Shown piece after piece: positions 598-34,770 of a DNA stretch of 64,000 bases. Location: the NCBI GenBank assembly GCA_034411995.1, contig DAOUME010000022.1:3965-67964 (forward strand). The letters are read 5' to 3'. Made by a program: the position numbers and the translations under genes. Position 1 is the first letter of the stretch. The number at the start of each line of letters is the position of its first letter. Below the pieces are notes generated by a model. That model did no database searches and was not told where the DNA came from. It saw only the letters and a list, made by a program, of their open reading frames with translations. The DNA comes from Anaerolineae bacterium (GTDB lineage Bacteria; Chloroflexota; Anaerolineae; UBA7937; B3-Chlor).

Positions 598-1203
598 ATG
601 AGAAGACAGGCCGTTTCTTCACTGTCGGGGGAGTACCTGGAAGCCATCAGCAGGAGGCTGAAAGAACTGCTTGTCGATGCCGATGCGGCGTCCGTGGTCA
701 TGGTCGACACCATGGGCCAGGTCATCGCGCAGGCCGGAGAAGTCGGCGATCTCGACATCACCACCGTCGTTTCGCTCCTGGCAGCCAGCTTCGCCACCAC
801 CTCGGAAATGTCACGTCAATTGAAGGAGGCGCGCAGGACGTTCAACCTCACCTTCCACGAAGGAGAGAGGTATGACATCTATGCGTCCAACATCGCCAGC
901 GGTCTGTTCCTGGTCCTGATTTTCGACAGGCATGCCTATGCTCCCAAGATCGGGATGGTCTGGCTGTACATCAAGCGGAGCATTCAGGACCTGCTGCGCA
1001 TCGTGGCCGAGACAGACGCCGCAAGGCCCAAGGAGACCCTGACCTCTGACTTCGCCAAGTCCCTTAGCAGCGAGCTGGATAACCTCTTCCAGGATAGAAA
1101 AGCGCCAGCGCCACCGAGTGGCAAATGGGAGGAGGAACAGATGCAGGACCTGATCCGTTGGCGAACCAGAGGCCCGCAAGGGTCCACGAAAGGGGAGGGG
1201 TAG
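598..1203 (+). CDS. Roadblock/LC7 (MglB-like) domain protein with charged C-terminal tail
   Basis: Roadblock-like pattern VVMVDTMGQVIAQAG...YDIYASNIASGLFLVLIF; stop abuts next start (TAGATG). Confidence 0.7.
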   Translation: MRRQAVSSLSGEYLEAISRRLKELLVDADAASVVMVDTMGQVIAQAGEVGDLDITTVVSLLAASFATTSEMSRQLKEARRTFNLTFHEGERYDIYASNIASGLFLVLIFDRHAYAPKIGMVWLYIKRSIQDLLRIVAETDAARPKETLTSDFAKSLSSELDNLFQDRKAPAPPSGKWEEEQMQDLIRWRTRGPQGSTKGEG

Positions 1204-1893
1204 ATGCCGCTCGAGGGAAACCTGCGGGAGCTAAGCCTGACGAACATCATCCAGTTGAACTGCAACGAAATGAACACCGCCACAGTGGTTCTGATGCACG
1301 AAGGCAGGGAGGGCATCGTCTGCTTCTCAGATGGAGCGGTCGTGCACGCTGCCGTGGAGGACCTGGTCGGTGAGGAGGCTGTCTACGAACTCCTCGCCTG
1401 GCCGGACGGGTCTTTCGTCGTGCACCAGGGACAGGCGGCGCCGGAGAGAACCATCTCAGGCAATTGGAACACCCTTCTTCTCGAGGGTATTCGCCGACTG
1501 GATGAAGGCGAGAGCGTGACGTGGGACAAGGTGGAGGCGGAACCCGCCACGGCCTCATCCGATCAGGGTGATGACATGACCAGACTCGCTCACGATCTGA
1601 AGATGATAGGCGGTGTGGAAGGGACGGTCATCATCTCCCACGACGGAGTGGTCTTCGCCAGTGACATCGATGGCAACCCTGAGAAAGAGGGTGCGGTCGC
1701 TGTGTTCGTGGGCAATGCGGCCAAGGAAGCAGGGGAAATGATGGAGCTTGCCCCGTTCGACTGGGGACTGATTACCATGGGCAAAGACAGAATGCTGGTC
1801 ATGGAACGGCCCAGGTTCTTCGTCGGCCTGGCCTTGGGCGAGAAGGCGTCACCGGCCCTGGTGAGCGCCGAGGCAGCGAAAATTCTGGGATAG
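1204..1893 (+). CDS. DUF4388 (PATAN-type) plus Roadblock/LC7 fusion protein
   Basis: N-terminus GNLRELSLTNIIQLNC...GIVCFSDGAVVHA...AVYELLAWPDGSF (DUF4388-like); C-terminus VEGTVIISHDGVVFAS...MLVMERPRFFVGLAL (Roadblock-like). Confidence 0.7.
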   Translation: MPLEGNLRELSLTNIIQLNCNEMNTATVVLMHEGREGIVCFSDGAVVHAAVEDLVGEEAVYELLAWPDGSFVVHQGQAAPERTISGNWNTLLLEGIRRLDEGESVTWDKVEAEPATASSDQGDDMTRLAHDLKMIGGVEGTVIISHDGVVFASDIDGNPEKEGAVAVFVGNAAKEAGEMMELAPFDWGLITMGKDRMLVMERPRFFVGLALGEKASPALVSAEAAKILG

Positions 1894-1909
1894 AAACGGA
1901 GGGAGGCCC

Positions 1910-3070
1910 GTGGAACAACTCTTGGCTGACATCAATGCTGTGGCTGGCGTGAAGGGGTCCTTCGTATGCGACGTAGACGGCGCGATAGTGGCGCGAGCCC
2001 TACCCGCATCCCTCGATGAGACCAGAATCCTGCCTGCCGCTCGTACCATTCTGCAAACCATCGACGGATTGGAAACCACCAGACGGCGCAAGGTCCAGGA
2101 ATTGGACATACTCTTTCGCGACGCACGGATGGTCGTCAAGAACCTGCGTGTAGGCTGCCTGTACGTCGTCTGCGCGCGCAACATCAATGTCCCCCTGCTG
2201 AACTTGACGGCCAACCTGTCGGCGAAGAAGCTGGCCGAGATGCTGAAGGAGCCAGAGTCGGAAACCGCCGGCCCTCCAGCGGTAGCAGTGGCCGCGGAGA
2301 AAGCCGCAACGCTCGAGGAGGTCCCCACCGGAGACCCCTCCGTCTTGCTGCTGGCGCGGGCCCACGAGCTCATCGGCGCTGCCTCGCGGAGAGGTATCTG
2401 TCTGCGCCTCCTGGGAGGCATGGCCGTCAAGGCCACGTGTGGGAGCGCGGCCAGCATTTCCCTGCCACCGGAGGGACTCGACCTGGATCTCGCCGCCTAT
2501 GGCAAGGATCGCAAGCAACTGGAACTCGTCATGGAGGAGCTGGGTTATGATCCTCAGCGACGCTTCAACGCCCTGCACGGGCACAGACGCCTCAAGTACT
2601 TTAACGAGGAGCAGGGCCTTGGGCTGGACGTGTTCGTCGATACCTTCCACATGTGTCACCAACTGCCCTTCAGCGATCGCCTGGAGATGAGCGAGTTCAC
2701 GCTGCCCATGGCCGATCTGTTGCTGTCCAAGCTGCAGATAGTGCAGATGGGAGAGAATGACCTTAGAGACATCTACGCCATCTTATGTGATCACGAACTC
2801 GGGCACCTGGGAGACGTGGACAGCGTGGAAGCCAGCTACATCGGCTCCATCTGCAGCGATGACTGGGGCTGGTACAAGACGATCACCCTGAACCTGACCA
2901 AGAGTATAGAGTTGGTAGATGACTTCCTGGCAGACGAGGAGAGGGAGGTTTACGTATCCCGCGCCCGTCAACTCATGCAAGTCATCGAGGCGGTGCCCAA
3001 GTCGCTCCGCTGGCAGGCCAGGGCAAGGATTGGCGAGGCCAGGCGCTGGTACGACTTGCCTGAAGAGTAG
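1910..3070 (+). CDS. Roadblock/LC7 plus nucleotidyltransferase-like fusion protein
   Basis: N-terminus VKGSFVCDVDGAIVARA (Roadblock-like); C-terminal half has a Pol-beta-type NTase signature LLGGMAV...GLDLDLAAY; GTG start after GGAGGGAGG. Confidence 0.6.
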   Translation: MEQLLADINAVAGVKGSFVCDVDGAIVARALPASLDETRILPAARTILQTIDGLETTRRRKVQELDILFRDARMVVKNLRVGCLYVVCARNINVPLLNLTANLSAKKLAEMLKEPESETAGPPAVAVAAEKAATLEEVPTGDPSVLLLARAHELIGAASRRGICLRLLGGMAVKATCGSAASISLPPEGLDLDLAAYGKDRKQLELVMEELGYDPQRRFNALHGHRRLKYFNEEQGLGLDVFVDTFHMCHQLPFSDRLEMSEFTLPMADLLLSKLQIVQMGENDLRDIYAILCDHELGHLGDVDSVEASYIGSICSDDWGWYKTITLNLTKSIELVDDFLADEEREVYVSRARQLMQVIEAVPKSLRWQARARIGEARRWYDLPEE

Positions 3071-3094
3071 CGACCAACTGATGGAGATGGCAAG

Positions 3095-3577
3095 ATGCAG
3101 CATCTGAATCCCCCAGACGAGCTTTTCGTCCGCATGGATGACTGCCTCGAGCGGCTCCTCGATCGGAGCCGGGCAGTCTGCGTACTACTGGCCGACATCA
3201 GCGGACAGTTGATCGTACAAAGAGGCAAGGACACCAGATTGGACACCTCGGCGCTGGCAGCCGTCACCGCCAGCAACATGGCAGCGACCGAGGAGATGGC
3301 CAGGCAGATAGGTGAGCCTGCACCTTTTTCCTACCTCTTCCACGAGGGGACCAGGCGGAGCATCTACGTCTCGGCCGTCGGCAAGACTTTTCTGCTGGTG
3401 ATCGTCTTTGACGAGATGTCACAAGTGGGGTTGGTGCGCATCTTCGCCAGGCTCGCGGTGAACGAACTGCTGGAGGTCACCACCGAGCTCGAGCCCTGGT
3501 TGGAGAAGGCAGGTTCGGTGGTGGATCGCGACTTCGGTGGGGCACTGGCCGACCAACTGGACAAAGCGTTCATCTGA
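3095..3577 (+). CDS. Roadblock/LC7 domain protein
   Basis: VCVLLADISGQLIVQRG...SIYVSAVGKTFLLVIVF pattern; GGAG 8 nt upstream of ATG. Confidence 0.7.
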   Translation: MQHLNPPDELFVRMDDCLERLLDRSRAVCVLLADISGQLIVQRGKDTRLDTSALAAVTASNMAATEEMARQIGEPAPFSYLFHEGTRRSIYVSAVGKTFLLVIVFDEMSQVGLVRIFARLAVNELLEVTTELEPWLEKAGSVVDRDFGGALADQLDKAFI

Positions 3578-9262: not shown

Positions 9263-10663
9263 TCAGATGGCAGCCTTGTCTCGGAAGAATGTGAAGAACG
9301 TCTTGATAATGATCTTCAGGTCGAACAGGATCGACCAGTTCTCTATGTAGTAAAGGTCGTACTTGGTCCTCGTCACGATGGACGTGTCGCCCCTGAGACC
9401 GTTGACCTGAGCCCAGCCGGTCATCCCTGCCTTTTCCTGGTGCCGCTCGACGTAGCGGGGGATGATCTGCTTGAACTGCTCCACGAACACGGGCCGCTCG
9501 GGCCTGGGTCCTACCAGGCTCATCTCCCCGAGGAAGACGTTGATGAACTGGGGCAACTCATCGAGAGAATAGCGCCTTATGAACGCACCCAGTCTGGTCC
9601 GTCGCGGATCGCCCTTGACGGCCCACACTGGTCCTGTGTCGTTCTCCGCTCCCTCCTTCATCGATCTGAACTTGATCATCCGGAACGGCTTCTCGTCCAG
9701 TCCCATGCGCTCCTGGGTGTAGAAGGCAGATCCCGGAGAATCGAGCTTGATGAGCAGTGCGACGAGCACCATTAGCGGCGAAAGTATGACCAGGCCCACA
9801 GCGCTGCCGGTGATGTCCATGGCCCGCTTGAGAGTCAGTCTCCAGCCCCTGAGCACGGTATCCCTCACCGTCAGCAGCGGCAGGCCGCCCAGATGGCCAA
9901 TGCTCAGATCGGACGTGATGAGCTGGAACGCACTGGGATAGACCCTGGTGGCCACCCTCGCTCGGTGGCAATCGGAGATGATGGGCAAGATCTCACGGCT
10001 GGCCGCGTCCGGCAGGGCAATGATCACCTCATCGATGCGCTCCGAGCGTATCAAGGAAAGCAGCTCGTCAGTGGTTCCCAGAGTCGGGACTCCAAGGTCC
10101 ACACTCTGCTGCGAAGCCTGGCTCACCATCCCCACTACCGCGTACCCCAGGCCGGGCAGCCTGCGCATAGCCTGCAATACCATGCGCCCGGTCTCTCCCG
10201 TGCCCACGATGAGCACCCTGGCCCCGCCGACACCTCTGCTCTGGAGGCTCCATATCAAGCGGCTGTAAACCAACCGACCGAGCGTCACCAGGACGATGGT
10301 CAGCAACCAGCAGAAGACGATCATCCGCCTCGAGTAGTCGGGCCCGTTCCTGATGAGAAACGAGTTGGCCGCCACGGAGATGATGGTCCCCACAGAGACG
10401 GCCACGAAGACGGAGTAGAACTCATCCACGTGAGACAAGCCCCGCTGCCGGTGGTACAACCTGGAGAAGAAAAACACCGAGACCAGGGTCAGCACCTGGA
10501 TGACGATCACACTCGCGTAACCCCGCAAAGAGCCGAGTTCGGCCGGGGTCAGCCGCTCGGTCCACAGCCTCAGGTAGTAGGTGAAGACGAAGGCCAGGAC
10601 CATCATCGCCATGTCGATGATCACCAGGAGTCCTGCGAACAGCACCGCGCTCTTGCCCTTCAC
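9263..10663 (-). CDS. polyprenyl glycosylphosphotransferase (WbaP/EpsB-type priming sugar transferase)
   Basis: Bacterial sugar transferase motifs PRPERPVFVEQF, GMTGWAQVNG, KYDLYYIENWS; N-terminal TM helices; GTG 10663 after GGAGG. Confidence 0.85.
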   Translation of the reverse strand: MKGKSAVLFAGLLVIIDMAMMVLAFVFTYYLRLWTERLTPAELGSLRGYASVIVIQVLTLVSVFFFSRLYHRQRGLSHVDEFYSVFVAVSVGTIISVAANSFLIRNGPDYSRRMIVFCWLLTIVLVTLGRLVYSRLIWSLQSRGVGGARVLIVGTGETGRMVLQAMRRLPGLGYAVVGMVSQASQQSVDLGVPTLGTTDELLSLIRSERIDEVIIALPDAASREILPIISDCHRARVATRVYPSAFQLITSDLSIGHLGGLPLLTVRDTVLRGWRLTLKRAMDITGSAVGLVILSPLMVLVALLIKLDSPGSAFYTQERMGLDEKPFRMIKFRSMKEGAENDTGPVWAVKGDPRRTRLGAFIRRYSLDELPQFINVFLGEMSLVGPRPERPVFVEQFKQIIPRYVERHQEKAGMTGWAQVNGLRGDTSIVTRTKYDLYYIENWSILFDLKIIIKTFFTFFRDKAAI

Positions 10664-10665
10664 CA

Positions 10666-11556
10666 CTAAGCCTCCGCAGCCGTCTGTTCTCCCTCCAGGC
10701 GCACCATCTCTCGCAGCATCCTCCTCCCGCCGCGCAACGCCAGCCCTCCGAGAACCAGATAGTGAGCCCACGACGGAGTCGTTTCGGCATAATGCTTGCG
10801 ATAGAAGATGTACATCGCGCGCCAGAACTCGTAGTTGGCCTTGTCCCTGTTCTGCTCGCTGGCCTTTCGCTTGTAGTGGAGCACAGTCACTTCGGGATAG
10901 TAATAGACCTTCCAGCCAGCCTGCTTGGCCCGAAGAGCCCAGTCCAAGTCCTCAGCGTACATGAAGTAGGACTCGTCCAGACCGCCCACCTGCTCGATGA
11001 CCTCCCCGCGGACTATCATAAACGCGCCCACCACCGAGTCTACCTCAGCCGTCTCGTCGGGGTCAAGATACGTCAGGTTGTACCGTCCGAAGCGCTTGCT
11101 CTTGGGGAAGAGATGGCTCAAACCGAACAGCTTGTAGAAGGAGTTCTCCACGGTCGGGAAACTGCGCCGGCAAGCCAGGTCCAAACTCCCGTCGGCCAGG
11201 ACCAGCTTGGGGCCCGCCATGCCGGCCTCAGGGTGGGTATCCATGAACTCCAGCATCTGCTCGAGGGCGTGCGGAGGAAGCACTGTGTCGCTGTTCAGCA
11301 AGAGGTAGTAGCGCGCGTGGAAGCGCCGCAACCCCAGGTTGTTCGCGTAGGCGTAGCCACCATTGATCTCACTCTCGATGACGTGCACCTGGGGGAACTC
11401 GTGTCCCACCATGGCACAGCTCCCGTCGCGAGAGCAGTTGTCCACGACCACGGTTTCGAAGGTGAACAAACCTTCGCTCTCGTATACGGACTTCAGGCAA
11501 TCCCGCAGCAGCTCTCGGGTATTCCAGTTGACGATGACGATCGAGAGATCACGCAT
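10666..11556 (-). CDS. family 2 glycosyltransferase
   Basis: [29 protein letters not shown] motifs. Confidence 0.85.
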
Positions 11557-11625: not shown

Positions 11626-12294
11626 TCACTCGGGGGCCGTATCCTCCCCCCGTTCTCCCACCGCCGATAGCACCCTCTGGAGCATGAGTGGTTCAGGCAC
11701 CATCCCGTCCACGAAGGTGGTCTGGTTGATCACGGTACGCGGCACACCGCGGACTTGATAATTGATTGCCAACTGGGGAAACTCGGTGGCCTCCACCATG
11801 TCTGCGGTAACGTAATCACTCTCCACCGCCATCCTGTGCGTCAGCACGACCGCGCTGGGGCAGTATGGTCAAGTAGGAGTGACGAAAACCTGAAAGTGGA
11901 TCGCTTCATCTATCCCCGCCAGCGCCTTCCTCGTGGCCTCGCACAACCTGGACTGTCCGGAGGAGACCGCCTTGATGGCCTCGATCAAAGAGACGAACTC
12001 GTAACCTGAGGGTATGCCATAGAAACGTACCCCGTAATCCCTCTCACCCACGACGGCGATGGCCGGGATCTTGTCTATGCCATACTCATCGACCTCGTCC
12101 TTGTCCGTGGCGAAATCGTAGATCTCGGCCTCCACCTTGTCGGACAGAGAGGCCAGCTCCTCCACCAGCTCGTGCGTTTCGGCGCAGAAGTCGCATTCCA
12201 AGTTCTGCGTGAACATCAACAGCCGCACCGGGCTCACCAGCTCGGCCAGTTGCTTGCCGACCTCCTTCCTGTCCTCATCCCTCAGCATGGGCAT
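11626..12294 (-). CDS. protein-disulfide oxidoreductase / glutaredoxin-like protein with two thioredoxin folds and in-frame TGA (candidate selenocysteine, U-P-Y-C)
   Basis: Track ORFs 11869..12294 and 11626..11847 are in the same frame, joined by TGA at 11869-11871. The read-through gives FVTPT-U-PYCPSAV...DMVEATEFP...VRGVPRTVI, matching the second CPYC unit of PDO-type proteins. The first unit has CDFC. Confidence 0.65.
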
Positions 12295-12327
12295 GACTTT
12301 CCCTCCTCGTCCAAGGGGACACGGCCC

Positions 12328-13095
12328 TCACCGCCGACTCGCCGCTGGCTTCCTGCCCAGGGCCCAGAAATGGGGCATGAAGAACAGACGCGATCCGTCC
12401 TGGAGAGCCTTCCACGCCCGGTTCCGATACCCCCGCAGTAAGGCTCCGTCGGCGACGTTGTCCAGCGTCTCGAAGATGAAATCCCATTCTGCATCGAACT
12501 CCTCCGAGAGCTGCCGGTCGTCCCAAACAGAGCCGATAATCCCCGCTTGCGCCACCAGCCCGGCGCCCGAGAGAAGCGCCTTCAAGCGCCGGCCGAGGCG
12601 AGGATTCGCCCCCTCGCGGCGCAGCGACTCCTCCATCAGCGGGCCCAGCTCAATGTCTTCTGGATAGTCTATCCGTCCCCCGTAGTCAGGCTCCGTCGTG
12701 GCCAGGACCGCGCCACCCTCCTTGACCACGCGAGCCATCTCCTGCACTACCAACGCCGGGCTCTCCACCCACAACAACAGGTAGCTGCACACCACCAGGT
12801 CGAAGCTCCCGTCTCGGAACGGCAACTGCTGGGCATCTCCCACCAGCCAGTCCACATCCGAGATCCAGGCGGCCGCAAACCTGATCACGGACGGGTCCAG
12901 ATCGAGACCCGTCACCCTCCCTCGGGTTCGCTGCGCGATCTCTGCGGTCACGGCCCCGGTGCCGCAGCCGACGTCGAGCACCCTCTCCGCGCCCCACAGT
13001 CCCGCCTGGCGATAGAGATGAAAACGTGTTTCCTGGGTCCAGTGAGCCTGCCGCTGGAACTGCCGATGCCATTGCTCAACGGTGAGGCTCACCAA
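12328..13095 (-). CDS. class I SAM-dependent methyltransferase
   Basis: Motif I VLDVGCGTG, GLDLD, Methyltransf_11-like spacing; TTG/GTG start. Confidence 0.85.
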   Translation of the reverse strand: MVSLTVEQWHRQFQRQAHWTQETRFHLYRQAGLWGAERVLDVGCGTGAVTAEIAQRTRGRVTGLDLDPSVIRFAAAWISDVDWLVGDAQQLPFRDGSFDLVVCSYLLLWVESPALVVQEMARVVKEGGAVLATTEPDYGGRIDYPEDIELGPLMEESLRREGANPRLGRRLKALLSGAGLVAQAGIIGSVWDDRQLSEEFDAEWDFIFETLDNVADGALLRGYRNRAWKALQDGSRLFFMPHFWALGRKPAASRR

Positions 13096-13158
13096 TGTCG
13101 CTCCATCCTGCCTGCCGATGGCCCCCGTACGGAAGAGCCGATGATCACGAAGAGCGAT

Positions 13159-14532
13159 CTAGACCGCGGTTGACGTGCTCTCGACGCACAGGGCACCCTG
13201 GTTCTTCAGGTACAGGGGGCACCCACCACCACACAGCGGCAGCTCATCGCAGGAACGACATTTCTCCATCACCCAGTCCCTGTTCCTGAGACTCACCGCC
13301 TCCTCATGATTCCAGATGGAACCCCAGTCGTCTCGAAGTATGTTCCCCAGGCTCGAATAGTAGCTCTGGCAGGGAATGACGTCCCCGTTGGGCTCGACGC
13401 ACATGTTGTACCTGGCGGCCGTACAGAACTTGGCTCCCAACTCCAGATCCACCGGATGGAACTCACAATACTGCGTCGGCGTGTACCAGATGAGCCTCAT
13501 CCCCTCAGCGATCGCCTTGTCGCGCACCCTGACCATGAGACCTTCCAGCTCTGTTTCCAGGATGCCGATGCCGCTGGAGGGCCCCTTCCCAGAATAGATG
13601 AGACTGTTGCAGGCAAAGGTCTCGATCCCCAGCTCCTTCAGGAACTCTATGGTCCGCTCGAACTGCGGAGCGTTCAGAGTGGTCAGCGTGCTATTGGTGA
13701 TCGTATAGACGTCCGTGGCGACCGCGTTCTTGATGCCCTGCACCGTCTGCTTCCAGACCTCTGCCCCCACCATCCGGTTGTGGATCGCCTCGTCGTGAGA
13801 CTCCAGCGTGATCTGAATGTGGTCCAACCCCGCGTCCACCAGCTCTTCAAGGTACCCTTCGTCCGCCAGCTTGATGCCGTTGGTTAGCAGACCAGCGACC
13901 AGCCCCACGTCCTCGGCGTGCCGAACCAGCTCGACCAGGTCGGGGTACAGGGTCGCCTCTCCCCCGGTGAAGACCACGTGCGGTATGCCCAGGTCCCACA
14001 GCTTGTCGATAACCTGTTTCCACTCCGCCGTGGTCAGGCTCTCCATATCCCTGGGGCGGCCAACGTAGCAGTGCCCGCAGTCAGCGTTGCACCTGTAGGT
14101 GAGCGCCAGGTCCATACGGTAGGGCGCCGAGACAGGTGTGTTGAAGGGTTCGATCCTCTGTACGTCCAGATACGAGATGGGGCACACGTTGTCGGTGGTA
14201 GCCAGGGTGAAGATGGTGTCTTTCAGGTGCTCGTAATCCTCGCGCAGCCTGGCCGTCGACGCTTTGTAACGCCTCTTCAGCTCTCTGACCGCCTCATCTG
14301 TGTCTTTGCCCTCGACGAGCAGCTTGGCATGCTCGGTGGCCGTCTTGTTGAGGTGCAAGACCTTCGCGGCGTTGACCACCAGGATACCCTCGCCGTTATC
14401 CTCCACCCGCAAATGGATCCGGAATCGCTGGTCAGCACCATCCGGAGTCATGTAATGGAACATGCCCTTCTCCAAGGGTTCGGGTGCCGTAGGAAAGAAG
14501 GTGTCCTTCAAAGACCGCCAAACGCTCATCAC
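13159..14532 (-). CDS. radical SAM/SPASM domain enzyme with N-terminal PqqD/RRE-like extension
   Basis: CNADCGHCY (CxxxCxxC); C-terminal Cys clusters CTAARYNMCVEPNGDVIPC and CRSCDELPLCGGGCP; about 140 aa N-terminal extension (ILVVNAAKVLHLNKTATEHAKLLVEGKDTDEAVRELKRRY). Confidence 0.8.
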   Translation of the reverse strand: MMSVWRSLKDTFFPTAPEPLEKGMFHYMTPDGADQRFRIHLRVEDNGEGILVVNAAKVLHLNKTATEHAKLLVEGKDTDEAVRELKRRYKASTARLREDYEHLKDTIFTLATTDNVCPISYLDVQRIEPFNTPVSAPYRMDLALTYRCNADCGHCYVGRPRDMESLTTAEWKQVIDKLWDLGIPHVVFTGGEATLYPDLVELVRHAEDVGLVAGLLTNGIKLADEGYLEELVDAGLDHIQITLESHDEAIHNRMVGAEVWKQTVQGIKNAVATDVYTITNSTLTTLNAPQFERTIEFLKELGIETFACNSLIYSGKGPSSGIGILETELEGLMVRVRDKAIAEGMRLIWYTPTQYCEFHPVDLELGAKFCTAARYNMCVEPNGDVIPCQSYYSSLGNILRDDWGSIWNHEEAVSLRNRDWVMEKCRSCDELPLCGGGCPLYLKNQGALCVESTSTAV

Positions 14533-14637
14533 ACGCCCTCCGCCCGTTTTCTAGAATGTCGCAGCGCCCTCGTCACTCCGCGACCCCGACGGTGCCCTGG
14601 CCCGTCGACATCGTGCGCGCATCCCTCTACTTCCGCT

Positions 14638-14666
14638 AGTATACCATAGAGGATAGTCTCAAGCAA
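14638..14666 (-). promoter_or_regulatory. candidate promoter of the radical SAM operon
   Basis: On the minus strand TTGCTT (14666-14661), 17-nt spacer, TGgTATACT (-10 at 14643-14638). Confidence 0.4.
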
Positions 14667-14700
14667 AAGAGGCCGCCTCAACAGAGACTGAGGCGGCCTC
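14661..14700 (-). terminator. intrinsic terminator of the SIMPL gene
   Basis: Perfect 12-bp stem GAGGCCGCCTCA/TGAGGCGGCCTC (14669-14700) followed on the minus strand by TTTTGCTT. Confidence 0.7.
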
Positions 14701-14737
14701 CGATGTTTCCCGCGAGCGCGTTGCTCCAGGGAGACTA

Positions 14738-15478
14738 TTAGCGAATGTCGAAGGTGACCTGGACCTGCACCGAGACCTCCAACTGGCCCGGCTGCACCGG
14801 CGCCGCACCTCCGCCTATCGCTCTCTCCGCGGTAGCGTAGATCGGCTCCAGATAGTACGGTGGCGACTCCGTGAAGGATTCGTTGATGTACCGGGGTCTC
14901 CCCAGCCCTACACCAGCCAACTGAGCCAGCGCCTCTGCCTTGTCTCGCGCCTGAGCCATCGCGTCGGCCCTGGCCTCTTCACGTAGCGCTGTGGGATCAT
15001 CGAACGTGAACCGGATGCCGTAGATGTTATTGGCTCCCGCCCCGGTCGCCGCATCCAGTACGTCTCCCGCCTTGTCTACCTCTCGCAGTTTCACCACCAC
15101 GGAGTTGTCGACCACGTAGCCGATGACCCGCTGCTCGTCGTCCTCCCAGTCGATCTCAGCCCGGACGCTGTAATCCACCGTCTGGACGTCCTCCTCAGCG
15201 ACTCCCAGCTCCAGGATCGCAGCCATCACGTCGGCCATCCGCTCGTCGTTCTCCGCGGCCGCCGCCCGGGCTTCTGCATTCCTCGTCTCCACCCCGATGG
15301 TGATCATGGCCAGATCTGGTTTCGCCGTCGCTTTTCCCTGGGCCATGACTGTGATGCCGGTCGGCTCTGTCACACCGCCCGACGGGCTAGGCACCGCCAC
15401 CACCATCAACTGAAGCACCAGCACGACAGCCACTAGGACCAGGCCCACTGCACCCACGACGATACCTGCTTTGGACAT
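14738..15478 (-). CDS. SIMPL (DUF541) domain secreted/membrane-anchored protein
   Basis: N-terminal TM/signal helix; DUF541-like pattern ITVMAQGKATAKPDLAMITIGVE...VSVQVQVTFDI. Confidence 0.75.
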   Translation of the reverse strand: MSKAGIVVGAVGLVLVAVVLVLQLMVVAVPSPSGGVTEPTGITVMAQGKATAKPDLAMITIGVETRNAEARAAAAENDERMADVMAAILELGVAEEDVQTVDYSVRAEIDWEDDEQRVIGYVVDNSVVVKLREVDKAGDVLDAATGAGANNIYGIRFTFDDPTALREEARADAMAQARDKAEALAQLAGVGLGRPRYINESFTESPPYYLEPIYATAERAIGGGAAPVQPGQLEVSVQVQVTFDIR

Positions 15479-27419: not shown

Positions 27420-27646
27420 GGCAAGCTCTGGTTCGCGCCTCAGGACGACAGGGGGACCGGGCCCCGAGGGCGGGTGATCCACCAAGTCTTGCCGCGCGGG
27501 CCTCGCCCCGCGCTGGGCAAGCCAGCTTGCCCTCGCTGGCCAGTTGTGCTACTATTGATTGACTTCGCCCCTACTTCGAGAACCGCTCGACAGACGCCTC
27601 GCCCCGGCAATGACCCGGGTCTGCCCACGCGCCAGAGGAGGAAAGC

Positions 27647-30600
27647 TTGGTGGCTCAAGAGGATCGCCCACAGGCAACCGCCCCGCCGGAGAGCCGTCGG
27701 GAGATCGAGGGTCTCGTCCAGCGCTTCGCCCGCAACCGCGACGTGTACACCCGCCCCGACTACAAAGAGACCCAGGTCCGCGTGGAGTTCATCGACCCCT
27801 TCTTCGAGGCCCTGGGCTGGGACGTGCGCAACGTCAAAGGGTACGCGGAACAGTACAAGGACGTGGTCCACGAGGACGCCATCAAGATCAGCGGGGCCAC
27901 CAAGGCCCCCGACTACTGCTTCCGCGTGGGCGGGGTGAGGAGGTTCTTCCTGGAGGCCAAGAAGCCCTCCACCGCGGTCAAGGGTGAGGTAGGCCCGGCC
28001 TACCAACTGCGCCGCTACGCCTGGAGCGCCAGGCTGCCCCTCAGTCTGCTCACCGACTTCGAGGAGCTCGCCGTCTACGACTGCCGCCAGCGGCCCCGGC
28101 CCACCGACAAGGCTGGCGTGGGCCGGGTGATGTATTACACCTTCGACCAGTACCTGGAGCGCCTGGACGAGATCTACTCCATCTTCGCCCGGGAATCGGT
28201 CCTCAAAGGCTCCTTCGACCGGTACGTGGAGGACACCAAACGCCAGCGCGGCACCAGCGAGGTGGACGTGGAGTTCCTCAAGGAGATCGAGGGCTGGCGC
28301 GACGAGCTGGCCCGCAACCTGGCCCTGAGGAACCCCCAGCTCTCCGTCCACGAGCTGAACTTCGCCGTGCAGCGCACCATCGACCGCATCATCTTCCTGA
28401 GGATGTGCGAGGACCGGGGCATCGAGAGGTATGGCGGCCTGCTGGGCCTGACCGCCGGTCCCCACGTCTACGACCGTCTGGGGGAGCTGTACCGCGAGGC
28501 CGATCAGAAGTACGACTCCGACCTCTTCGACTTCCAGGCGGACAGACTGACCAGGTCCCTCTCCCTCGACGACAAGACCCTCAAGCCCATCCTCTCCGGC
28601 CTGTACTACCCCGACTGCCCCTACGAGTTCTCCGTGCTCCCCCCGGAGATCCTGGGCCAGGTGTACGAGCAGTTCCTGGGCAAGGTCATCCGCCTCACCG
28701 CGGGCCACCGGGCCAAGGTGGAGGAGAAGCCGGAGGTGAAGAAGGCGGGCGGCGTGTACTACACCCCCTCCTACATCGTGGAGTACATCGTCCAGCAAAC
28801 GGTGGGTCGCCTCATCGAAGGCAAGACGCCCCAGCAGATCTCCAAGCTGCACATCCTGGACCCCGCCTGCGGCTCCGGATCGTTCCTGCTGGGCGCTTAC
28901 CAGCACCTGCTGGACTACCACCGGCGCTGGTACGAAGAGCACGACCCGGAGAAGTACGCCACGGCCAAGCGCCCCGCCCTGTACCAGGGCCGCGGGGGCG
29001 AGTGGCGGCTGACCACGGGGGAGAAGAAGCGCATCCTGCTCAACAACATCTACGGCGTGGACATCGACCGCCAGGCGGTGGAGGTGACCAAGCTGAGCCT
29101 GCTGCTCCAGGTGCTGGAGGGAGAGAGCCAGGAGACGTTGGGCCAGCAGTTGAAGCTGTGGCGGGAGAGGGCCCTGCCCGACCTGGGGGAGAACATCAAG
29201 TGTGGCAACTCCTTGATCGGCCCGGACTACTTTGAGGGGCAGTTGCTGCCCGACGAGGAGGAGATGCGCCGGGTGAACCCCTTCGACTGGGAGAAGGAGT
29301 TCCTCCAGATTATGAAGGCGGGCGGCTTTGACGCGGTCATCGGGAACCCGCCCTACATCCGCATCCAGAGGATCGAGCATAGCGTGGCGGACTACCTCTT
29401 CCGCTCCTATCGGGCTCCGACAAGCAAGACCGACCTCTCTCTGGTGTTTCTTGAGCGCGCTCTGGCCCTAGCAACGGACAGCGGACTTGTCGGCTTCATA
29501 TGCACGTCTCAGTGGCTGTCGACAGACTACGGGCGGAACATGCGGGCCATGCTGTCCGATGGGCGACTTCACCAAGTGGTCGACTTCGGCTCCCTGCCAG
29601 TCTTCCAGAAAGCCAATACATACCCTGCGATCCTGATCCTGAGCCCGACCCGATGCGACGCCCTTGCGCTTAAGCGGATCCGGCGAGGTGAACAGCTGAA
29701 CCTGCCGGGCATCCAAGCTACCGATCCGGTCTTGATCGATCTGGATGGACTATCGGACGACCCATGGAACCTTGGGCGTTTGGATATACCAACGCTGCTC
29801 GGCGAGCGCGGGCTCGAATGGAGACCGCTCAGCGCGTACGCGAACGCGTACATCGGAGTCCTGACCGGCATGGACAGGGCCTTCGTCGTCGAGACGAGGG
29901 CTGCCAAGCAACTCCAGTTGGAGACGGACCTGCTCTTGCCGTACGCGTACCGAGGGGCCGAAGTCCAGCGATATGCTCAGGTGGAGCCTGGGGCCCTGGT
30001 GATTTACCCGTACCGTGAAGGGCCAGGGGGCGCGCCGAGGCTCATCCCCGAACCAGAACTGAGGCGGCACTACCCGAATATCCACCAGCATCTCGTGGCT
30101 CACAAGGATGCTCTGCGTGAGCGAAGAGATAGCCGGAGATTCTACGCGAAGGGGCCAGACTGGTATCGTCACCTGCGCGCGGGCTCCTTCGACTACATTC
30201 ATGCCCGCAAGCTCCTCGTCAAGGGTATTGAGACCCGTACGGTCGTAGGCCTGTTGGACGCGGGGACAGCATTCAATGGCGCGAACTGTCCGGGCGTAAT
30301 CGTCGAAGAGCCACAACAACTCTCGCCTCTCTACATCCTGGGGATCCTCAATTCCGGCGTCATGTCGTATCACCTTCGGATGATCTGCCCGGCGAAGCTA
30401 GGCGGCTACACTAGATTCAATGCTCGCGGCATCAACAGTGCACCCATCCGCACCCTCAGTCGCACAGACCGGGCCGAGGAAGCCCGACACGACAAGATGA
30501 TCGCGCTGGTGGAGCGGATGTTGGACCTGCATGAGAAGCTGGCCGCGGCCACCATCCCCGCCGACAAGAAACTCTACCAGCGTCAGATCGAGGCCACAGA

Positions 30601-30679
30601 TGAGGAGATAGACGCGCTGGTGTATGAGTTGTATGGGTTGACCGAGGAGGAGATCGCTATCGTGGAGGGTCGGGCGTGA
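27647..30679 (+). CDS. type IIG restriction-modification enzyme (fused PD-(D/E)xK nuclease, N6-adenine methyltransferase and specificity domain; Eco57I-like)
   Basis: PDYCF...FFLEAKKP nuclease motif, LDPACGSGSFLL motif I, NPPY at 29345-29356, tail LVYELYGLTEEEIAIVEG; 1010 aa; GAGGAGGAAAG RBS. Confidence 0.9.
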   Translation: MVAQEDRPQATAPPESRREIEGLVQRFARNRDVYTRPDYKETQVRVEFIDPFFEALGWDVRNVKGYAEQYKDVVHEDAIKISGATKAPDYCFRVGGVRRFFLEAKKPSTAVKGEVGPAYQLRRYAWSARLPLSLLTDFEELAVYDCRQRPRPTDKAGVGRVMYYTFDQYLERLDEIYSIFARESVLKGSFDRYVEDTKRQRGTSEVDVEFLKEIEGWRDELARNLALRNPQLSVHELNFAVQRTIDRIIFLRMCEDRGIERYGGLLGLTAGPHVYDRLGELYREADQKYDSDLFDFQADRLTRSLSLDDKTLKPILSGLYYPDCPYEFSVLPPEILGQVYEQFLGKVIRLTAGHRAKVEEKPEVKKAGGVYYTPSYIVEYIVQQTVGRLIEGKTPQQISKLHILDPACGSGSFLLGAYQHLLDYHRRWYEEHDPEKYATAKRPALYQGRGGEWRLTTGEKKRILLNNIYGVDIDRQAVEVTKLSLLLQVLEGESQETLGQQLKLWRERALPDLGENIKCGNSLIGPDYFEGQLLPDEEEMRRVNPFDWEKEFLQIMKAGGFDAVIGNPPYIRIQRIEHSVADYLFRSYRAPTSKTDLSLVFLERALALATDSGLVGFICTSQWLSTDYGRNMRAMLSDGRLHQVVDFGSLPVFQKANTYPAILILSPTRCDALALKRIRRGEQLNLPGIQATDPVLIDLDGLSDDPWNLGRLDIPTLLGERGLEWRPLSAYANAYIGVLTGMDRAFVVETRAAKQLQLETDLLLPYAYRGAEVQRYAQVEPGALVIYPYREGPGGAPRLIPEPELRRHYPNIHQHLVAHKDALRERRDSRRFYAKGPDWYRHLRAGSFDYIHARKLLVKGIETRTVVGLLDAGTAFNGANCPGVIVEEPQQLSPLYILGILNSGVMSYHLRMICPAKLGGYTRFNARGINSAPIRTLSRTDRAEEARHDKMIALVERMLDLHEKLAAATIPADKKLYQRQIEATDEEIDALVYELYGLTEEEIAIVEGRA

Positions 30680-30828
30680 GCGGACGGCGCAGCTGGTCGA
30701 GCCGCACATCCGCTGGTAGGCGCGATGGCCCCGAATCTCGCAATCAGGGCAACCCAATGGGCAGCTAGGTTCGACAGCCGGCCGCGGCCGTGCGGATATT
30801 GGCTGGGCCGGGAGCGCGGAGAGTTGGA

Positions 30829-31656
30829 GTGACCGCAGTTGTAGGCGTAAGTTTCCTCTCGGAAGTCATAATGATCGCAGATACTAGGGTGTCCTGGCCA
30901 GGCGCCCCACGGCCACCAGCAGATATGTTGCGGAAGCTGTACCCGGTCTTTTCGCCGCGAACTCCACAAAAGGCAGCTGTGCTGGGTTTCTCCGGCACAA
31001 TATCGGCGGCCAAAACAGTAATGATACACCTCGTGAAGGACAAGCTTCGCAACTACAATCGGCCCCTGATAATGGTCAATCTGAAAGACCATTTGAAGTG
31101 CTGGATAGAAGAAGTGACGGTGACCTGCCTGAGTCCGAGGAGCAGAACCGGCCTCACCTTCATGCTCTGCGGGCTTGAACCCTCCCGCACTGCTGCTGCA
31201 AGAAAGGGAAACGCGCTCGTGAGGTATAGACAGATCTTGGAAACCCACATATACGTCTTCAGTGTGAGCCAGAGCACCGGCAGAGTAGACGTGGTGAAGA
31301 AAGGCCTCTTCGCCGTCATTGGCTCGGGTGCAACACTCGAGCGAGAGCTGAAACGGAAGATTCCGCCAATGATCAGGTTCGGATTCAACCAGCCGAATCT
31401 GCATTGGGCACGAGCTCGCTTGGTGGGCGAAGTAGCGCGAGGAGTTTTTGACAGCGGCGGCGCAACCACAGTTGGCGGACCGTTTCAAGTGTTCCGCATC
31501 ACAGCAGAAGGCTTGGTCACCGAGTACATCTGGCCGGCAAGTATACAACCAAGAGACGTCAGCGTACGACAAGAAGGCCAAAAGACCATAATACAGAATC
31601 GAGACCTCAACCAGACTTACACGCTCCATCCCATATGGGACCTGCCATTGCAGTAG
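30829..31656 (+). CDS. proteasome-beta/HslV-like Ntn (threonine) hydrolase homologue, stand-alone
   Basis: GTG 30829 lies 5 nt after GGAGAG and gives M-TAVVGVSFLSEVIMIADTRVS: Thr1 directly after the initiator, Asp17 in ADTR, Lys35 in RKLYPV, later AVIGSGAT and DSGG...FRITAEG; this order matches the proteasome beta fold. Confidence 0.6.
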   Translation: MTAVVGVSFLSEVIMIADTRVSWPGAPRPPADMLRKLYPVFSPRTPQKAAVLGFSGTISAAKTVMIHLVKDKLRNYNRPLIMVNLKDHLKCWIEEVTVTCLSPRSRTGLTFMLCGLEPSRTAAARKGNALVRYRQILETHIYVFSVSQSTGRVDVVKKGLFAVIGSGATLERELKRKIPPMIRFGFNQPNLHWARARLVGEVARGVFDSGGATTVGGPFQVFRITAEGLVTEYIWPASIQPRDVSVRQEGQKTIIQNRDLNQTYTLHPIWDLPLQ

Positions 31657-31679
31657 TGGGCGAACCAGCAAGTGGCGCC

Positions 31680-31811
31680 GCCACCATCCCCGCTGACAAG
31701 AAGCTCTGCCAGCGCCAGATGGAGGCCACCGATGAGCAAATCGACGCGCTGGTGTACAAATTGTATGGGGTGACGGAGGAAGAGATCGCTATCGCGGAGG
31801 GCCGGGGTTGA
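31680..31811 (+). repeat. remnant copy 2 of the type IIG gene 3' end
   Basis: 132 nt align without gaps to 30548-30679 (19 substitutions by hand count); encodes ATIPADKKLCQRQMEATDEQIDALVYKLYGVTEEEIAIAEGRG-stop with no upstream ORF. Confidence 0.9.
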
Positions 31812-31851
31812 CAGCCAGAAACCCGATGCGGTAGGGACCTAGACGGGCGGC

Positions 31852-33510
31852 TTGCGGCATGACCAGACCGGCCTCCTCTCGCAGAGCGCAAGGCCGGGCA
31901 ATGCAGCGACCGGGGGCATCAGGGGAAATACATTGACAACCATCTCGCAGGGTGAACTGAACAACCTGAGCGTGCTCATCGTGGAAGATGCGCGGCAGGC
32001 TCTGGAGATGCTACTACGGTATCAGCAGAAGTACCGCGACGACATCAATTTCGCCGCGAACAAAGGAGGTTTGCTGATTGACATTGGTAGTCGTCTCGGC
32101 GACACCGGTGTTGTACGGCAGGGCATGGCGTCGATTGATGAGTTGCTGCCGAGGGCTGGTGAGCAATCTCGTCCCCTTCTCCTCTACAATCTAGGCAACG
32201 GGTATATGGCGTTGCACTCCATTGCTCGGCGCCAACCTGGCTTCTCATTCGACCCCGATGACACTAGACTCCGTGAAGCCAAGCGCTGTTACCGCGGCGT
32301 GCTGGGAGGATCAGAGCGTCTTGATGCCAACCAACGCGCTGGACTCCGAGTGAACTATGGCAACTGTCTCGCGAGTCTTGGCCGTTCCCTCGAGGCAATC
32401 CACCAATACGAGACGGCTCTCCGCCACGCGCCCAATCACCCCATGGCATGGGGGAACCTGGGAGTTGAGTTGGAGCGCTTCGCGTTCGTTGGTCAAGACC
32501 CGGCCATCCTGCGGGCTGCGAATGAAGGGCTACTCAGGGCTCTTGCAGATGATAGCCTTGAGCAAATGGGAGAGGATTCGGCGCGCCCCGGTTTCGAAAA
32601 GGCGCAGCAACGTATTGCACGGCTGTTGAGCCAGCTTGTAGAAGACGCGGGACTGGGCGGGCCCGAGGTGCCCCAGGCCGCGACACCGTATCATCAAGCG
32701 TACAGCGAGTTCTGTGTGAAGCATGAACTCTTCCTGAATTTCTGTCTGAAGGGCCGCCCATGCCAGCGGGTGGCTGAAGATGCTGTCAGTTTGTCAATTA
32801 CCACGCCACTTGATGACGAGACGACCTACCCTCGGCTCGCACGAGTGGTCAACGAGATCAAAGAACGATACGCGGTCGCCCGCCTACTGCTGTTCGAAGC
32901 CTGCAATCCGCCTCTTGACACTCAGCCATATGACGAGATGACCTACTACGCGGACAATCTCGACTACGCCGTATACGGGATTGGTCCCACCAAGCTGAAG
33001 CTGGCCTTTGAAAGTGCCTACAACATCTTGGACAAGCTGGCCTTCTTCGTCAACGACTATCTCGATCTGGGGATCAAGGTGCGGCTGGTGAGTTTTCAGG
33101 GGCTATGGAAGGAGCGCAAGACGGCCGCTCTCAGGCCTGCGATTGTCGAACGTGGTAATTGGCACCTGTATGGCCTGTACGACCTCTCCAAAGACCTAGC
33201 ACCGACAGGCTACCTTGAGCACCTGCGGCTCACCCGAGACTATCTAACACACCGCTATCTGGTGCTCCATGTTGAGGGGCTAGATTGGCTAACGTCCGCC
33301 GATGGTCCTGGGTACCACTCGGGCTACCGCCAGTTGCTGACCAACACGATCGAATTGATGCGACTCGTCCGCAGTGCGGTCATCTACCTCATCGCCTTCA
33401 TCGACCGAGAGGAGCGCGCGAAACGCCAAGACGGAGAGGGCTCTATTGCACCCATGCGTGTCCCGCCTTATAGGCCTTACCGGTTGGGTCCGCAGGATGC
33501 TCCAATGTAG
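31852..33510 (+). CDS. TPR-repeat protein with C-terminal HEPN-like (Rx4H) domain, LA2681-like architecture
   Basis: TPR-like helices (NYGNCLASLGRSLEAIHQYETALRHAPNHPMAWGNLG); C-terminal RLTRDYLTHRYLVLH (R-x4-H); start uncertain (TTG 31852 or TTG 31933 after AGGGGAAA). Confidence 0.6.
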   Translation: MRHDQTGLLSQSARPGNAATGGIRGNTLTTISQGELNNLSVLIVEDARQALEMLLRYQQKYRDDINFAANKGGLLIDIGSRLGDTGVVRQGMASIDELLPRAGEQSRPLLLYNLGNGYMALHSIARRQPGFSFDPDDTRLREAKRCYRGVLGGSERLDANQRAGLRVNYGNCLASLGRSLEAIHQYETALRHAPNHPMAWGNLGVELERFAFVGQDPAILRAANEGLLRALADDSLEQMGEDSARPGFEKAQQRIARLLSQLVEDAGLGGPEVPQAATPYHQAYSEFCVKHELFLNFCLKGRPCQRVAEDAVSLSITTPLDDETTYPRLARVVNEIKERYAVARLLLFEACNPPLDTQPYDEMTYYADNLDYAVYGIGPTKLKLAFESAYNILDKLAFFVNDYLDLGIKVRLVSFQGLWKERKTAALRPAIVERGNWHLYGLYDLSKDLAPTGYLEHLRLTRDYLTHRYLVLHVEGLDWLTSADGPGYHSGYRQLLTNTIELMRLVRSAVIYLIAFIDREERAKRQDGEGSIAPMRVPPYRPYRLGPQDAPM

Positions 33511-33544
33511 TCCCCAGGTGCCGCGTGCAGAACTCTAGTTCGGG

Positions 33545-33598
33545 GTGCTAGTGTATGAGTTATATGGGTTGACCGAGGAGGAGATCGCGATTGTCTGA
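33545..33598 (+). repeat. remnant copy 3 of the type IIG gene 3' end
   Basis: GTGCTAGTGTATGAGTTATATGGGTTGACCGAGGAGGAGATCGCGATTGTCTGA = (V)LVYELYGLTEEEIAIV-stop. Confidence 0.85.
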
Positions 33599-33631
33599 AG
33601 GGCTTCCTCAGCGCAGAGAGTAGGCTGTAGC

Positions 33632-34135
33632 ATGATTCAGCCTTGGAGCGACCCCATACCGTACGACCTATCCCGCACGCTGCGTCGGGCAAGTGTCCCG
33701 CCGGGGTTCAGCAGTAGTGTGCCGCAGACTCCGGGTACGTACGTGATCTATTGCACCGCTCAACCAGACCTATGTGAAGCTATCATTGATATCGGAGAAG
33801 CTGGCCCGCGCGCCAAAGCGAGACCAAAGGGCCTCCGAGGGAGGCTGGCAACTACAGTTGCCCACACGGCCTCTGAAAGGATGGCCGCTGACGTACAGGC
33901 CGGCAAACTCCCGAACAGACTCCGTGTAGTTTGGATCGAGAGGCCGTCCAAAGAGGACGCCAAGGAGTTACAGGACGCACTTATCAGCCTCTTCCGAACG
34001 GATTGCGGACGCCAGCCGCGACACAACAAGAGACTGGAGCAGCACCCAAAGCCTGAGGCCTTCCTGGCGATTTGCGCCGCCCTGAAGAGGCACATTGGCG
34101 GCCTATTGCGCCACCCGACGGCCCGCTGCGGGTGA
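33632..34135 (+). CDS. GIY-YIG-like nuclease domain protein
   Basis: PGTYVIY...IIDIGEAG...GLRGRL...H...VVWIERPSKEDAKELQDALISLF...P.HN follows the GIY / YIG / R / H / E / N order of GIY-YIG domains. Confidence 0.45.
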   Translation: MIQPWSDPIPYDLSRTLRRASVPPGFSSSVPQTPGTYVIYCTAQPDLCEAIIDIGEAGPRAKARPKGLRGRLATTVAHTASERMAADVQAGKLPNRLRVVWIERPSKEDAKELQDALISLFRTDCGRQPRHNKRLEQHPKPEAFLAICAALKRHIGGLLRHPTARCG

Positions 34136-34244
34136 CCAGACCGGCGTGCCCCAGGTTGGAGTGAGCGCTGCCCCCCGGCGGGCTCAGCCCGAGGGGGCCG
34201 GGGGCAAATCGTTCGGTGCAACAGCAGAATCAAAGGAGGAGGAG

Positions 34245-34691
34245 ATGTCTGAGTTGCTCACTGCTATCGGCGTCGTATCAGCCGCTAGTGTGTCGATCCT
34301 TAGTGTCTTTGTCCCTTCTTACTACGACAGGCAGCACCGCAAGGAGGAGAAAGCCGACGCCGAACTCCGAAGAATAGACGAGACTACCTTGGGTTTTCTA
34401 GCACAGCTCTCGAACTTCCGGCATTGGGAACCCAGGAGCCTTCAGAAGATCGCGGGGGATCGTGCACTAGAGCATCTCTACACCGACTTGCAGGTAGCGC
34501 AGTATGCTTGGGAGCGCGCCGTTTGGCCAAAACTGGGTGATCAAGACCGCGCCAAGGTCGAGACCATCCGCACAAGGCTTGAAGGGGTCCATACCGCCAA
34601 CGACCTGTCGAGACGCGCAAATGAGTCGGATGTTCCTGCATTGGCAGATCAAATCCTCGCATTGGCTCGTGCCGCAAATGGACGGCCCTAG
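34245..34691 (+). CDS. uncharacterised protein with one N-terminal TM helix
   Basis: ATG 34245 after AAAGGAGGAGGAG; LLTAIGVVSAASVSILSVFV helix, then a helical soluble part. Confidence 0.5.
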   Translation: MSELLTAIGVVSAASVSILSVFVPSYYDRQHRKEEKADAELRRIDETTLGFLAQLSNFRHWEPRSLQKIAGDRALEHLYTDLQVAQYAWERAVWPKLGDQDRAKVETIRTRLEGVHTANDLSRRANESDVPALADQILALARAANGRP

Positions 34692-34770
34692 TCGACCAAG
34701 TGTGTTTGGTTTTGGTGTACAGTGTGCACTGACGCACAGCTGCTTCGGCCCAACAATGGCTTGACCCCAT

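Follow-up and report, generated by a model that had tools for sequence, protein, structure and literature searches.

A UGA codon and a conserved downstream hairpin point to selenocysteine in a protein disulfide oxidoreductase of an Anaerolineae bacterium

Does a UGA codon that cuts an otherwise intact reading frame in two end the protein, or does it specify selenocysteine (Sec)? This question is raised by a gene for a protein disulfide oxidoreductase (PDO) on the minus strand of a 64,000-nucleotide stretch of DNA from an Anaerolineae bacterium (GenBank assembly GCA_034411995.1, contig DAOUME010000022.1), the whole of which we call the window and in whose numbering its features are given. The gene (11626..12294) starts at ATG 12294, ends at TGA 11628..11626 and would encode 222 residues; its sole interruption is an in-frame TGA at 11871..11869, after which 80 codons follow with neither a frameshift nor a second stop. 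A sequence-only reading of the window had described a single frame split by this TGA alone, and the minus-strand translation bears this out, with no other interruption between 12294 and 11626 and with the quoted read-through peptide (...HFQVFVTPT-stop-PYCPSAVVLTHRMAVESDYVTADMVEATEFPQLAINYQVRGVPRTVIN...) exact. Seven nucleotides 5′ of the ATG lies AGGAGG (12302..12307, minus strand, read from ..gacGAGGAGGgaaagtcATG..), which probably serves as the Shine-Dalgarno sequence. The CxxC of the N-terminal unit is kept as that reading had said (C34-D-F-C37, 12195..12184, both cysteines invariant in a 23-sequence alignment), and the UGA falls on the first position of a U-P-Y-C motif (11871..11860) in the C-terminal unit, where we propose Sec142 from the sequence, the alignment, the recurrence of the codon and its presence in independent assemblies. 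Gene callers instead report a 141-aa product and a separate open reading frame (ORF) of 68-73 aa; the N-terminal fragment is the source's own gene call and stands in the database as a truncated protein (entry P0035), and public protein sets accordingly list two entries for the gene, a "glutaredoxin-like protein" of 141 aa and a thioredoxin fragment of 68-73 aa that stands as an orphan. Our analysis makes it highly probable that the UGA is decoded as selenocysteine through a hairpin at 11857..11842.

To score the 222-residue product against family profiles, Cys was substituted at the TGA position. It matches the NCBIfam model TIGR02187.2 (PDO_seleno_TRX, protein disulfide oxidoreductase) with 275.5 bits against a cutoff of 185, over profile positions 2-208 of 209, and Pfam Thioredoxin_3 matches it in two stretches. 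The nearest solved structure by sequence is the Pyrococcus furiosus PDO 1A8L (E = 2.3e-46, residues 2-212), and the full-length PDO matches in the PDB comprise 1A8L, 1J08, 2AYT and 2HLS. The two Thioredoxin_3 stretches and the 1A8L alignment thus place tandem thioredoxin folds in one chain of the usual ∼220–230 residues, and the family assignment made from the sequence alone, a PDO with two thioredoxin folds, is upheld. The active site is likewise that of the family, as FVTPT-UGA-PYC (U142, C145) and the CxxC of the N-terminal unit all lie in columns that are conserved in the alignment.

If the UGA is a Sec codon, then it should sit where relatives carry a catalytic residue. A database search returned thousands of homologues, the best full-length ones 72–74% identical; these are mostly unnamed or called "glutaredoxin-like protein", with Anaerolineae and Chloroflexota names on somewhat more distant matches. 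When 21 full-length homologues are aligned with the product, the TGA coincides with the leading Cys of a near-invariant T-P-T-C-P-Y-C, with conservation of at least 90% at C142, P143, Y144 and C145, so that the aligned residue is Cys and neither a gap nor a stop, and the TGA does sit on the nucleophilic Cys of CPYC as had been claimed. The 80 codons after it align without gaps with the conserved DMVEAxEFPxLAxxYxVxGVPRTVIN region, and overall identity is 58–74%. The closest full-length database homologues are Cys forms, which top protein searches because the truncated Sec forms rank too low.

The same codon recurs at the same site in many other genomes. We searched 596 Gb of sequence, in which each of 185,579 species is represented by a single genome, for the pattern F-[VIT]-T-P-T-TGA-P-Y-C, for which our calculation gives a random expectation of ∼2 matches at this degeneracy, and obtained at least 120; among the matches listed, 119 lie in two-domain PDO reading frames. 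In every case with sufficient downstream sequence, the frame runs ∼70–110 codons beyond the TGA with the conserved sequence of the family. Orthologues in at least 119 other bacterial species from several phyla therefore carry the same-site UGA, their hosts belonging to Chloroflexota (many of them Anaerolineae), Bacillota (Sulfobacillus thermotolerans, Alicyclobacillus tolerans and A. mengziensis), Acidobacteriota, Ignavibacteria, Dormibacterota, Methylomirabilota and others, and this recurrence is far beyond chance. A further match of the scan is a small glutaredoxin-like gene of a single domain in Deltaproteobacteria bacterium RBG_13_52_11 (locus L006, minus strand near 1142-1168; MDVKIFTTPT-TGA-PYCHKAKEFL...), which is a separate, short UPYC selenoprotein candidate.

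The codons downstream of the TGA are, by their substitution patterns, under strong purifying selection. Compared with the two nearest TGA-carrying species (loci L013 and L015), the ratio of nonsynonymous to synonymous divergence (dN/dS) after the TGA is 0.088 against L015 (62 codons, dS 1.10) and 0.063 against L013, as low as the 0.12–0.13 obtained before the TGA, with synonymous divergence near or above 1. Values of 0.06–0.09 past the TGA argue that the frame is neither a pseudogene nor terminated at this codon.

The UGA is also not a product of the assembly. A 95%-identical copy of the PDO is present on contigs of two separate Joint Genome Institute (JGI) metagenomes (L242 and L243), with the same neighbours and the same split call (141 aa + 68 aa) as in the window. 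Over the stretch that begins 30 nt ahead of the TGA and ends at the stop codon their DNA is 99% identical; neither the TGA nor any of the 54 bases that follow it differs, and five of the seven differences after the TGA are synonymous in the PDO frame. The TGA and the hairpin are thus identical across three independent assemblies (the NCBI/Logan source and two JGI metagenomes), which speaks against a misread TGC or TGT, the finding that the sequence-only reading had named as fatal to its proposal. Nor is UGA a sense codon in this genome: about half of the window's ORFs with high GC content at third codon positions (GC3) stop at TGA, including the PDO gene at its own terminator and a sugar transferase (9263..10771) whose family profile is matched to position 444 of 445. 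The earlier judgement that a reassigned genetic code is unlikely can therefore be sharpened, as reassignment is excluded. A GC3-based scan of the window for other in-frame TGA selenoprotein candidates left only the PDO gene, the other matches being adjacent genes that share a frame by chance or non-coding frames.

Decoding of UGA as Sec in bacteria would require a selenocysteine insertion sequence (SECIS) just downstream of the codon. Published constraints on the bacterial element call for a 4-16-bp stem closed by a loop of 3-9 nt with G in its first two positions, a spacing of 16-37 nt to the UGA and a free energy no higher than -7.5 kcal/mol (PMC13188914, Figure 2 legend). The sequence-only reading had found no convincing SECIS by eye, and on this point it has to be revised. 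The sequence CAGCGC-GGUC-GUGCUG (5′ arm 11857..11852, loop GGUC 11851..11848, 3′ arm GUGCUG 11847..11842, minus strand), neither of the two candidates that had been named, begins 11 nt past the UGA (+14..+29) and forms a 6-bp stem with its loop 17 nt from the UGA. The core hairpin has a free energy of -7.4 kcal/mol alone, and the minimum-energy fold of +12..+39 is at -8.9. An extended element (11862..11837) is possible, in which a lower stem UGC/GCA (11862..11860 with 11839..11837) and a 2 × 2 internal loop precede the core; +9..+34 folds as (((..((((((....))))))..))) at -11.0 kcal/mol and the corresponding sequence of L015 folds alike. The hairpin at 11857..11842 thus essentially fits the published constraints, with the free energy of the bare hairpin borderline.

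Of the two earlier candidates, GUGC-UGAC-GCAC (11836..11847, minus strand) does form a hairpin, but only at -3.5 kcal/mol, and it is not a conserved SECIS element, as it lies off the conserved positions of the family (peaks at +20 and +25, not +28); it reuses the 3′ arm of the proposed SECIS and competes with it for GUGC. The other, GCGGUGG...UUACCGC (+43..+68), has no comparative signal in its support. We rejected both.

If the hairpin serves Sec insertion, it should be found in TGA forms of the gene and be rarer in Cys forms. We compared 114 TGA forms with 114 Cys forms, the latter drawn from a matching TGY pattern scan of metagenomes, over the 90 nt past the TGA or TGY codon. The best local hairpin reaches -7.5 kcal/mol or lower in 90% of the TGA forms versus 39% of the Cys forms. 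In the TGA forms the apical loop starts at +20 in 49/114 (class A) and at +25 in 25/114 (class B, with the 5′ arm at +20, typically GGCCA-GGU-UGGCC), whereas in the Cys forms the starts are scattered. A perfect 6-bp class A stem with its 5′ arm at +14..+19 occurs in 67/114 TGA versus 4/114 Cys forms (Fisher p = 2.5e-21), and a perfect hairpin of either class in 98/114 versus 16/114 (Fisher p = 1.5e-29). The hairpin class tends to track the local peptide (PRAVVLA versus PSAARLA and similar). Within class A the stems change in pairs (GCGAGC/GCUCGC, GCAAGC/GCUUGC, GCCAGC/GCUGGC, CCGGGC/GCCUGG, CCAGUC/GACUGG and CAGGGC/GUCCUG), some of these changes coupling an amino-acid change with a synonymous one, and the loops always start N-G-U; because this subset was picked for pairing, the contrast between Sec and Cys forms is the non-circular test. 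Closer to the window, the position and loop motif of the hairpin are common to the TGA-carrying L013, L015, L242 and L243; the hairpin is identical in L242 and L243, and in L013 and L015 it reads CGGCAC-GGUC-GUGCUG, with A-U changed to G-U and G-U to A-U relative to the window. The hairpin was missed by RNAalifold when it was given 30 TGA forms aligned with MAFFT, because MAFFT kept the codon register while the loops vary from 3 to 6 nt, which puts the 3′ arms out of register; position-anchored pair counts were used in its place. As a separate observation, in one Cys-type PDO on a metagenome contig (L232) similarity is lost ∼20 codons past CPYC (...AFESPNGGSRNGGGDGISHAG...), which suggests that the gene is a pseudogene or that an assembly error has shifted its frame.

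Several observations weigh against decoding as Sec and have to be set beside this evidence. The bare hairpin at -7.4 kcal/mol misses the -7.5 threshold by 0.1, its single-sequence fold is unremarkable (z = -1.4 for 101 nt and -1.3 for 38 nt), and resampling synonymous codons for the same peptide gives folds just as stable (z = -0.09). With the UGA included a rival fold of similar energy exists, and the 101-nt and 38-nt folds favour pairings that involve the UGA region, which we discount because they are impossible while the UGA occupies the A site. Support for the SECIS is therefore comparative, not thermodynamic. A search of Rfam, over the whole window at the gathering threshold and at the locus at E ≤10, returned only a tRNA-Leu; this is at most weak evidence against a SECIS, as we know of no general bacterial SECIS model in Rfam. 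The 64-kb window contains no selA, selB, selD or tRNA-Sec, which at such a length is uninformative. The Cys-type orthologue of L245 (GCA_975967045.1) keeps a perfect hairpin, CAGCAC-GGUC-GUGCUG, after the TGC of its CPYC, and so the hairpin alone is no proof of Sec decoding. Finally, selenium incorporation in the PDO family is listed as predicted, not experimentally verified (PMC13188914).

The hairpin in L245 deserves closer attention, as the three closest Cys forms (L244, L245 and L246) are true orthologues within the same gene neighbourhood. Of the other two, L244 and L246, one retains 5/6 and one 4/6 of the hairpin pairs. Judged from these sequences, the series looks like a "fossil" SECIS that decays progressively after a recent exchange between Sec and Cys. 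Within a conserved gene cluster, the PDO of this Anaerolineae clade flips between Sec and Cys among syntenic sister lineages. A broader reading of this switching, either as a very recent Sec-to-Cys replacement that leaves a fossil SECIS or as UGA or UGC plus SECIS read as Cys via a tRNA-ReC-type system, seems to us quite unlikely; were tRNA-ReC-type decoding true, the UGA of the window would not specify selenocysteine.

Cysteine insertion is also the rival that most directly concerns the identity of residue 142. According to PMC13582414, which cites Vargas-Rodriguez et al. 2018, tRNA-ReC-type tRNAs decode UGA as Cys given a downstream SECIS. If SelB delivered a Cys-charged tRNA that resembles tRNA(Sec) (tRNA-ReC, SelC*), the same UGA and the same hairpin would yield an ordinary CPYC PDO. 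Such recoding is an acknowledged limit of purely bioinformatic Sec calls (PMC13582414), and Cys is clearly tolerated at this position, since syntenic sister lineages have it there, one of them together with the hairpin. We nevertheless hold it to be improbable: the survey finds tRNA-ReC in ∼17% of Sec-type genomes (PMC13582414), the window contains no such tRNA, canonical SelA is encoded near the Sec-PDO gene in two related genomes, and a benefit from Sec is the simpler account of why over 100 species have kept the UGA. The SelA genes in question (TIGR00474; 548 and 516 bits) come from two Anaerolineaceae genomes, at a distance of 4–5 kb from the Sec-PDO gene (L020 4343-5782 and L042 5436-6797, both on the minus strand), where they adjoin an Xaa-Pro peptidase-like gene, TsaD and an extracytoplasmic function (ECF) sigma factor. 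No such linkage of SelA with the PDO exists in the window, where a tblastn search with the SelA, SelB and SelD proteins of E. coli matched only LepA, via the GTPase domain of SelB. ARAGORN found no tRNA-Sec beside the Sec-PDO genes on 120 loci; its 95-nt "tRNA-???" at L040 2384-2478 (plus strand) has an odd anticodon loop, matches no Rfam tRNA or tRNA-Sec model and is probably a false positive.

The remaining rivals take the UGA as a true stop or as no UGA at all. One holds that a Cys-type PDO recently suffered a nonsense mutation (TGC or TGT to TGA), which left a pseudogene or only the 141-residue N-terminal fragment; this would agree with the split gene calls, with the Cys forms as the nearest full-length database homologues and with the unremarkable single-sequence fold statistics. 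It is hard to reconcile with the TGA shared by L013 and L015, with downstream dN/dS of 0.06–0.09 despite high synonymous divergence, with the predominance of synonymous differences between near-identical strains, with 80 downstream codons free of frameshifts and second stops and with the same TGA in at least 119 species, while the Cys top hits are explained by the under-ranking of truncated Sec forms; we regard it as improbable as well. Two separate polypeptides, a 141-aa N-terminal thioredoxin-like protein and a ∼70-aa C-terminal fragment made from an internal start, are more improbable still. An internal GTG (11847) and an ATG do open same-frame ORFs of 73 and 68 aa, but neither is preceded by a properly spaced Shine-Dalgarno sequence, both fragments would be without UPYC/CPYC, the conserved redox site of the second unit, and all solved structures of the family show a single two-domain chain. 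Least credible of all is that the TGA reflects a sequencing or assembly error or a code in which UGA reads as Trp or Gly. This is a possibility a priori only and is in effect refuted by the three independent assemblies, by the TGA stops that end roughly every second credible gene of the window, the PDO terminator among them, and by the homologues, which show Cys and not Trp or Gly at the aligned residue. The selenocysteine reading first proposed from the sequence alone is strengthened by the alignment of TGA with Cys, its recurrence in at least 119 species, the purifying selection past it and the exclusion of code reassignment.

With Sec decoding as the preferred reading, expression of the gene would proceed as follows. 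Translation would start at ATG 12294 and continue until UGA 11871..11869 enters the A site; as the hairpin begins 11 nt downstream of the UGA, CAGCGC-GGUC-GUGCUG would then lie just outside the mRNA channel, where SelB with GTP and Sec-tRNA(Sec) would bind it. Sec would be inserted instead of termination, and 80 more codons would be read up to TGA 11628..11626. The predicted product would have two thioredoxin folds, the N-terminal unit with CDFC and the C-terminal unit with U-P-Y-C and selenium at the attacking (N-terminal) position, and would cycle between selenolate/thiol and selenenylsulfide forms. The N-terminal domain of AhpF and the PDOs of archaea and Aquifex suggest by analogy that it may take electrons from a flavoprotein of the thioredoxin reductase type and hand them on to peroxiredoxins or to disulfides in proteins. 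For the organism of the window itself we infer SelB, tRNA(Sec), the insertion of selenium and the partners that would donate electrons to the enzyme and accept them from it in the cell.

The genes around the PDO keep a conserved order in all close orthologues, whether of the Sec or the Cys type (window 12328-15478, minus strand; L242, L244, L245 and L246). A SIMPL/YggE-like protein (14738-15478), a radical-SAM/SPASM enzyme with a PqqD-like N-terminus (13159-14532) and a class I methyltransferase (12328-13095) are followed by the PDO, a glycosyltransferase and the sugar transferase, and a functional link of the PDO with the radical-SAM/SPASM enzyme is possible.

Two other regions of the window drew our attention. 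At ∼30–36 kb the GC content falls to 0.55–0.59; an Eco57I/MmeI-type restriction-modification enzyme of 1010 aa (27647-30679) adjoins this low-GC region, a protein with an LA2681-like HEPN domain is encoded at 31852-33510 and a 351-aa ORF with no family match at 35030-36085, so that ∼27600-36100 looks like a small defence or mobile island. A run of small Roadblock/LC7 and DUF4388 genes at 598-3577 (plus strand), beside a truncated histidine-kinase-like ORF at the start of the window, resembles MglB-type regulatory modules.

If the UGA is indeed read as Sec, the locus should be annotated as one 222-residue selenoprotein instead of two split entries, and the gene would imply that its Chloroflexota genome decodes Sec. 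The distribution of the family also needs to be redrawn. The 2006 survey recorded only two Sec members, in Carboxydothermus hydrogenoformans and Symbiobacterium thermophilum (Zhang et al. 2006, PMC1794560), and with at least 119 species, Sulfobacillus and Alicyclobacillus included, Sec-PDO is far more widespread than that, although recent databases probably already capture this wider spread. Selenium insertion in the family having to date only been predicted, its demonstration would be a modest first.

How does the locus compare with known systems? The SECIS of E. coli fdhF, studied in the Böck laboratory, reportedly has an 11-nt spacer, a 4-nt GGUC loop and a bulged U in the upper stem. The window hairpin would share the 11-nt spacer and the GGUC loop with it, as well as the position of the loop G-U, said to lie ∼21–23 nt from the U of the UGA, but it is a plain 6-bp helix without a bulged U, and the stem sequences are unrelated. 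By this analogy, it would work like the fdhF SECIS.

On the protein side, the N-terminal domain of AhpF (1ZYN, 1HYU and 4O5Q) has the same tandem thioredoxin folds (E 1e-10 to 1e-11), TIGR03140 also matches, and in AhpF the redox-active CxxC likewise lies in the second fold. In contrast to AhpF, the window protein has no fused thioredoxin-reductase-like flavoprotein module and keeps the CxxC of the first fold, and it scores far under the AhpF cutoffs (78 bits versus 503). The Cys-type PDOs of hyperthermophiles are closer: PfPDO 1A8L, P. horikoshii 1J08, Aquifex aeolicus 2AYT and 2YWM and Aeropyrum pernix 2HLS give full-length two-domain matches (E 2.3e-46 to 2.9e-30), share the CxxC of the N-terminal unit and read FVTPTCPYCP in the C-terminal unit. 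They differ in having Cys where the window protein has UGA and in a short insert that follows the CPYC helix (ENTKAGKGKILGD) and is missing from the window protein. The PDOs of Sulfolobus, Pyrococcus and Aquifex are substrates of thioredoxin reductase and reduce peroxiredoxins.

The closest counterpart is the known Sec-PDO family itself, exemplified by ABB15282.1 of C. hydrogenoformans. PMC13188914 (Table 1) counts this family among the UxxC selenoproteins "predicted with high confidence" and credits the first prediction to Kryukov & Gladyshev 2004, and even the name of the NCBIfam model (PDO_seleno_TRX) contains "seleno". The window gene and the family share this model, a single Sec and the UxxC motif, with the Sec at the first Cys of the CxxC of the C-terminal unit, and in this comparison by family model and motif nothing fundamental differs. 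At the level of sequence the window gene thus appears to have every feature expected of the PDO family and of a bacterial selenoprotein gene. It brings no new biology; the window PDO is a member of a selenoprotein family that has been predicted since 2004.

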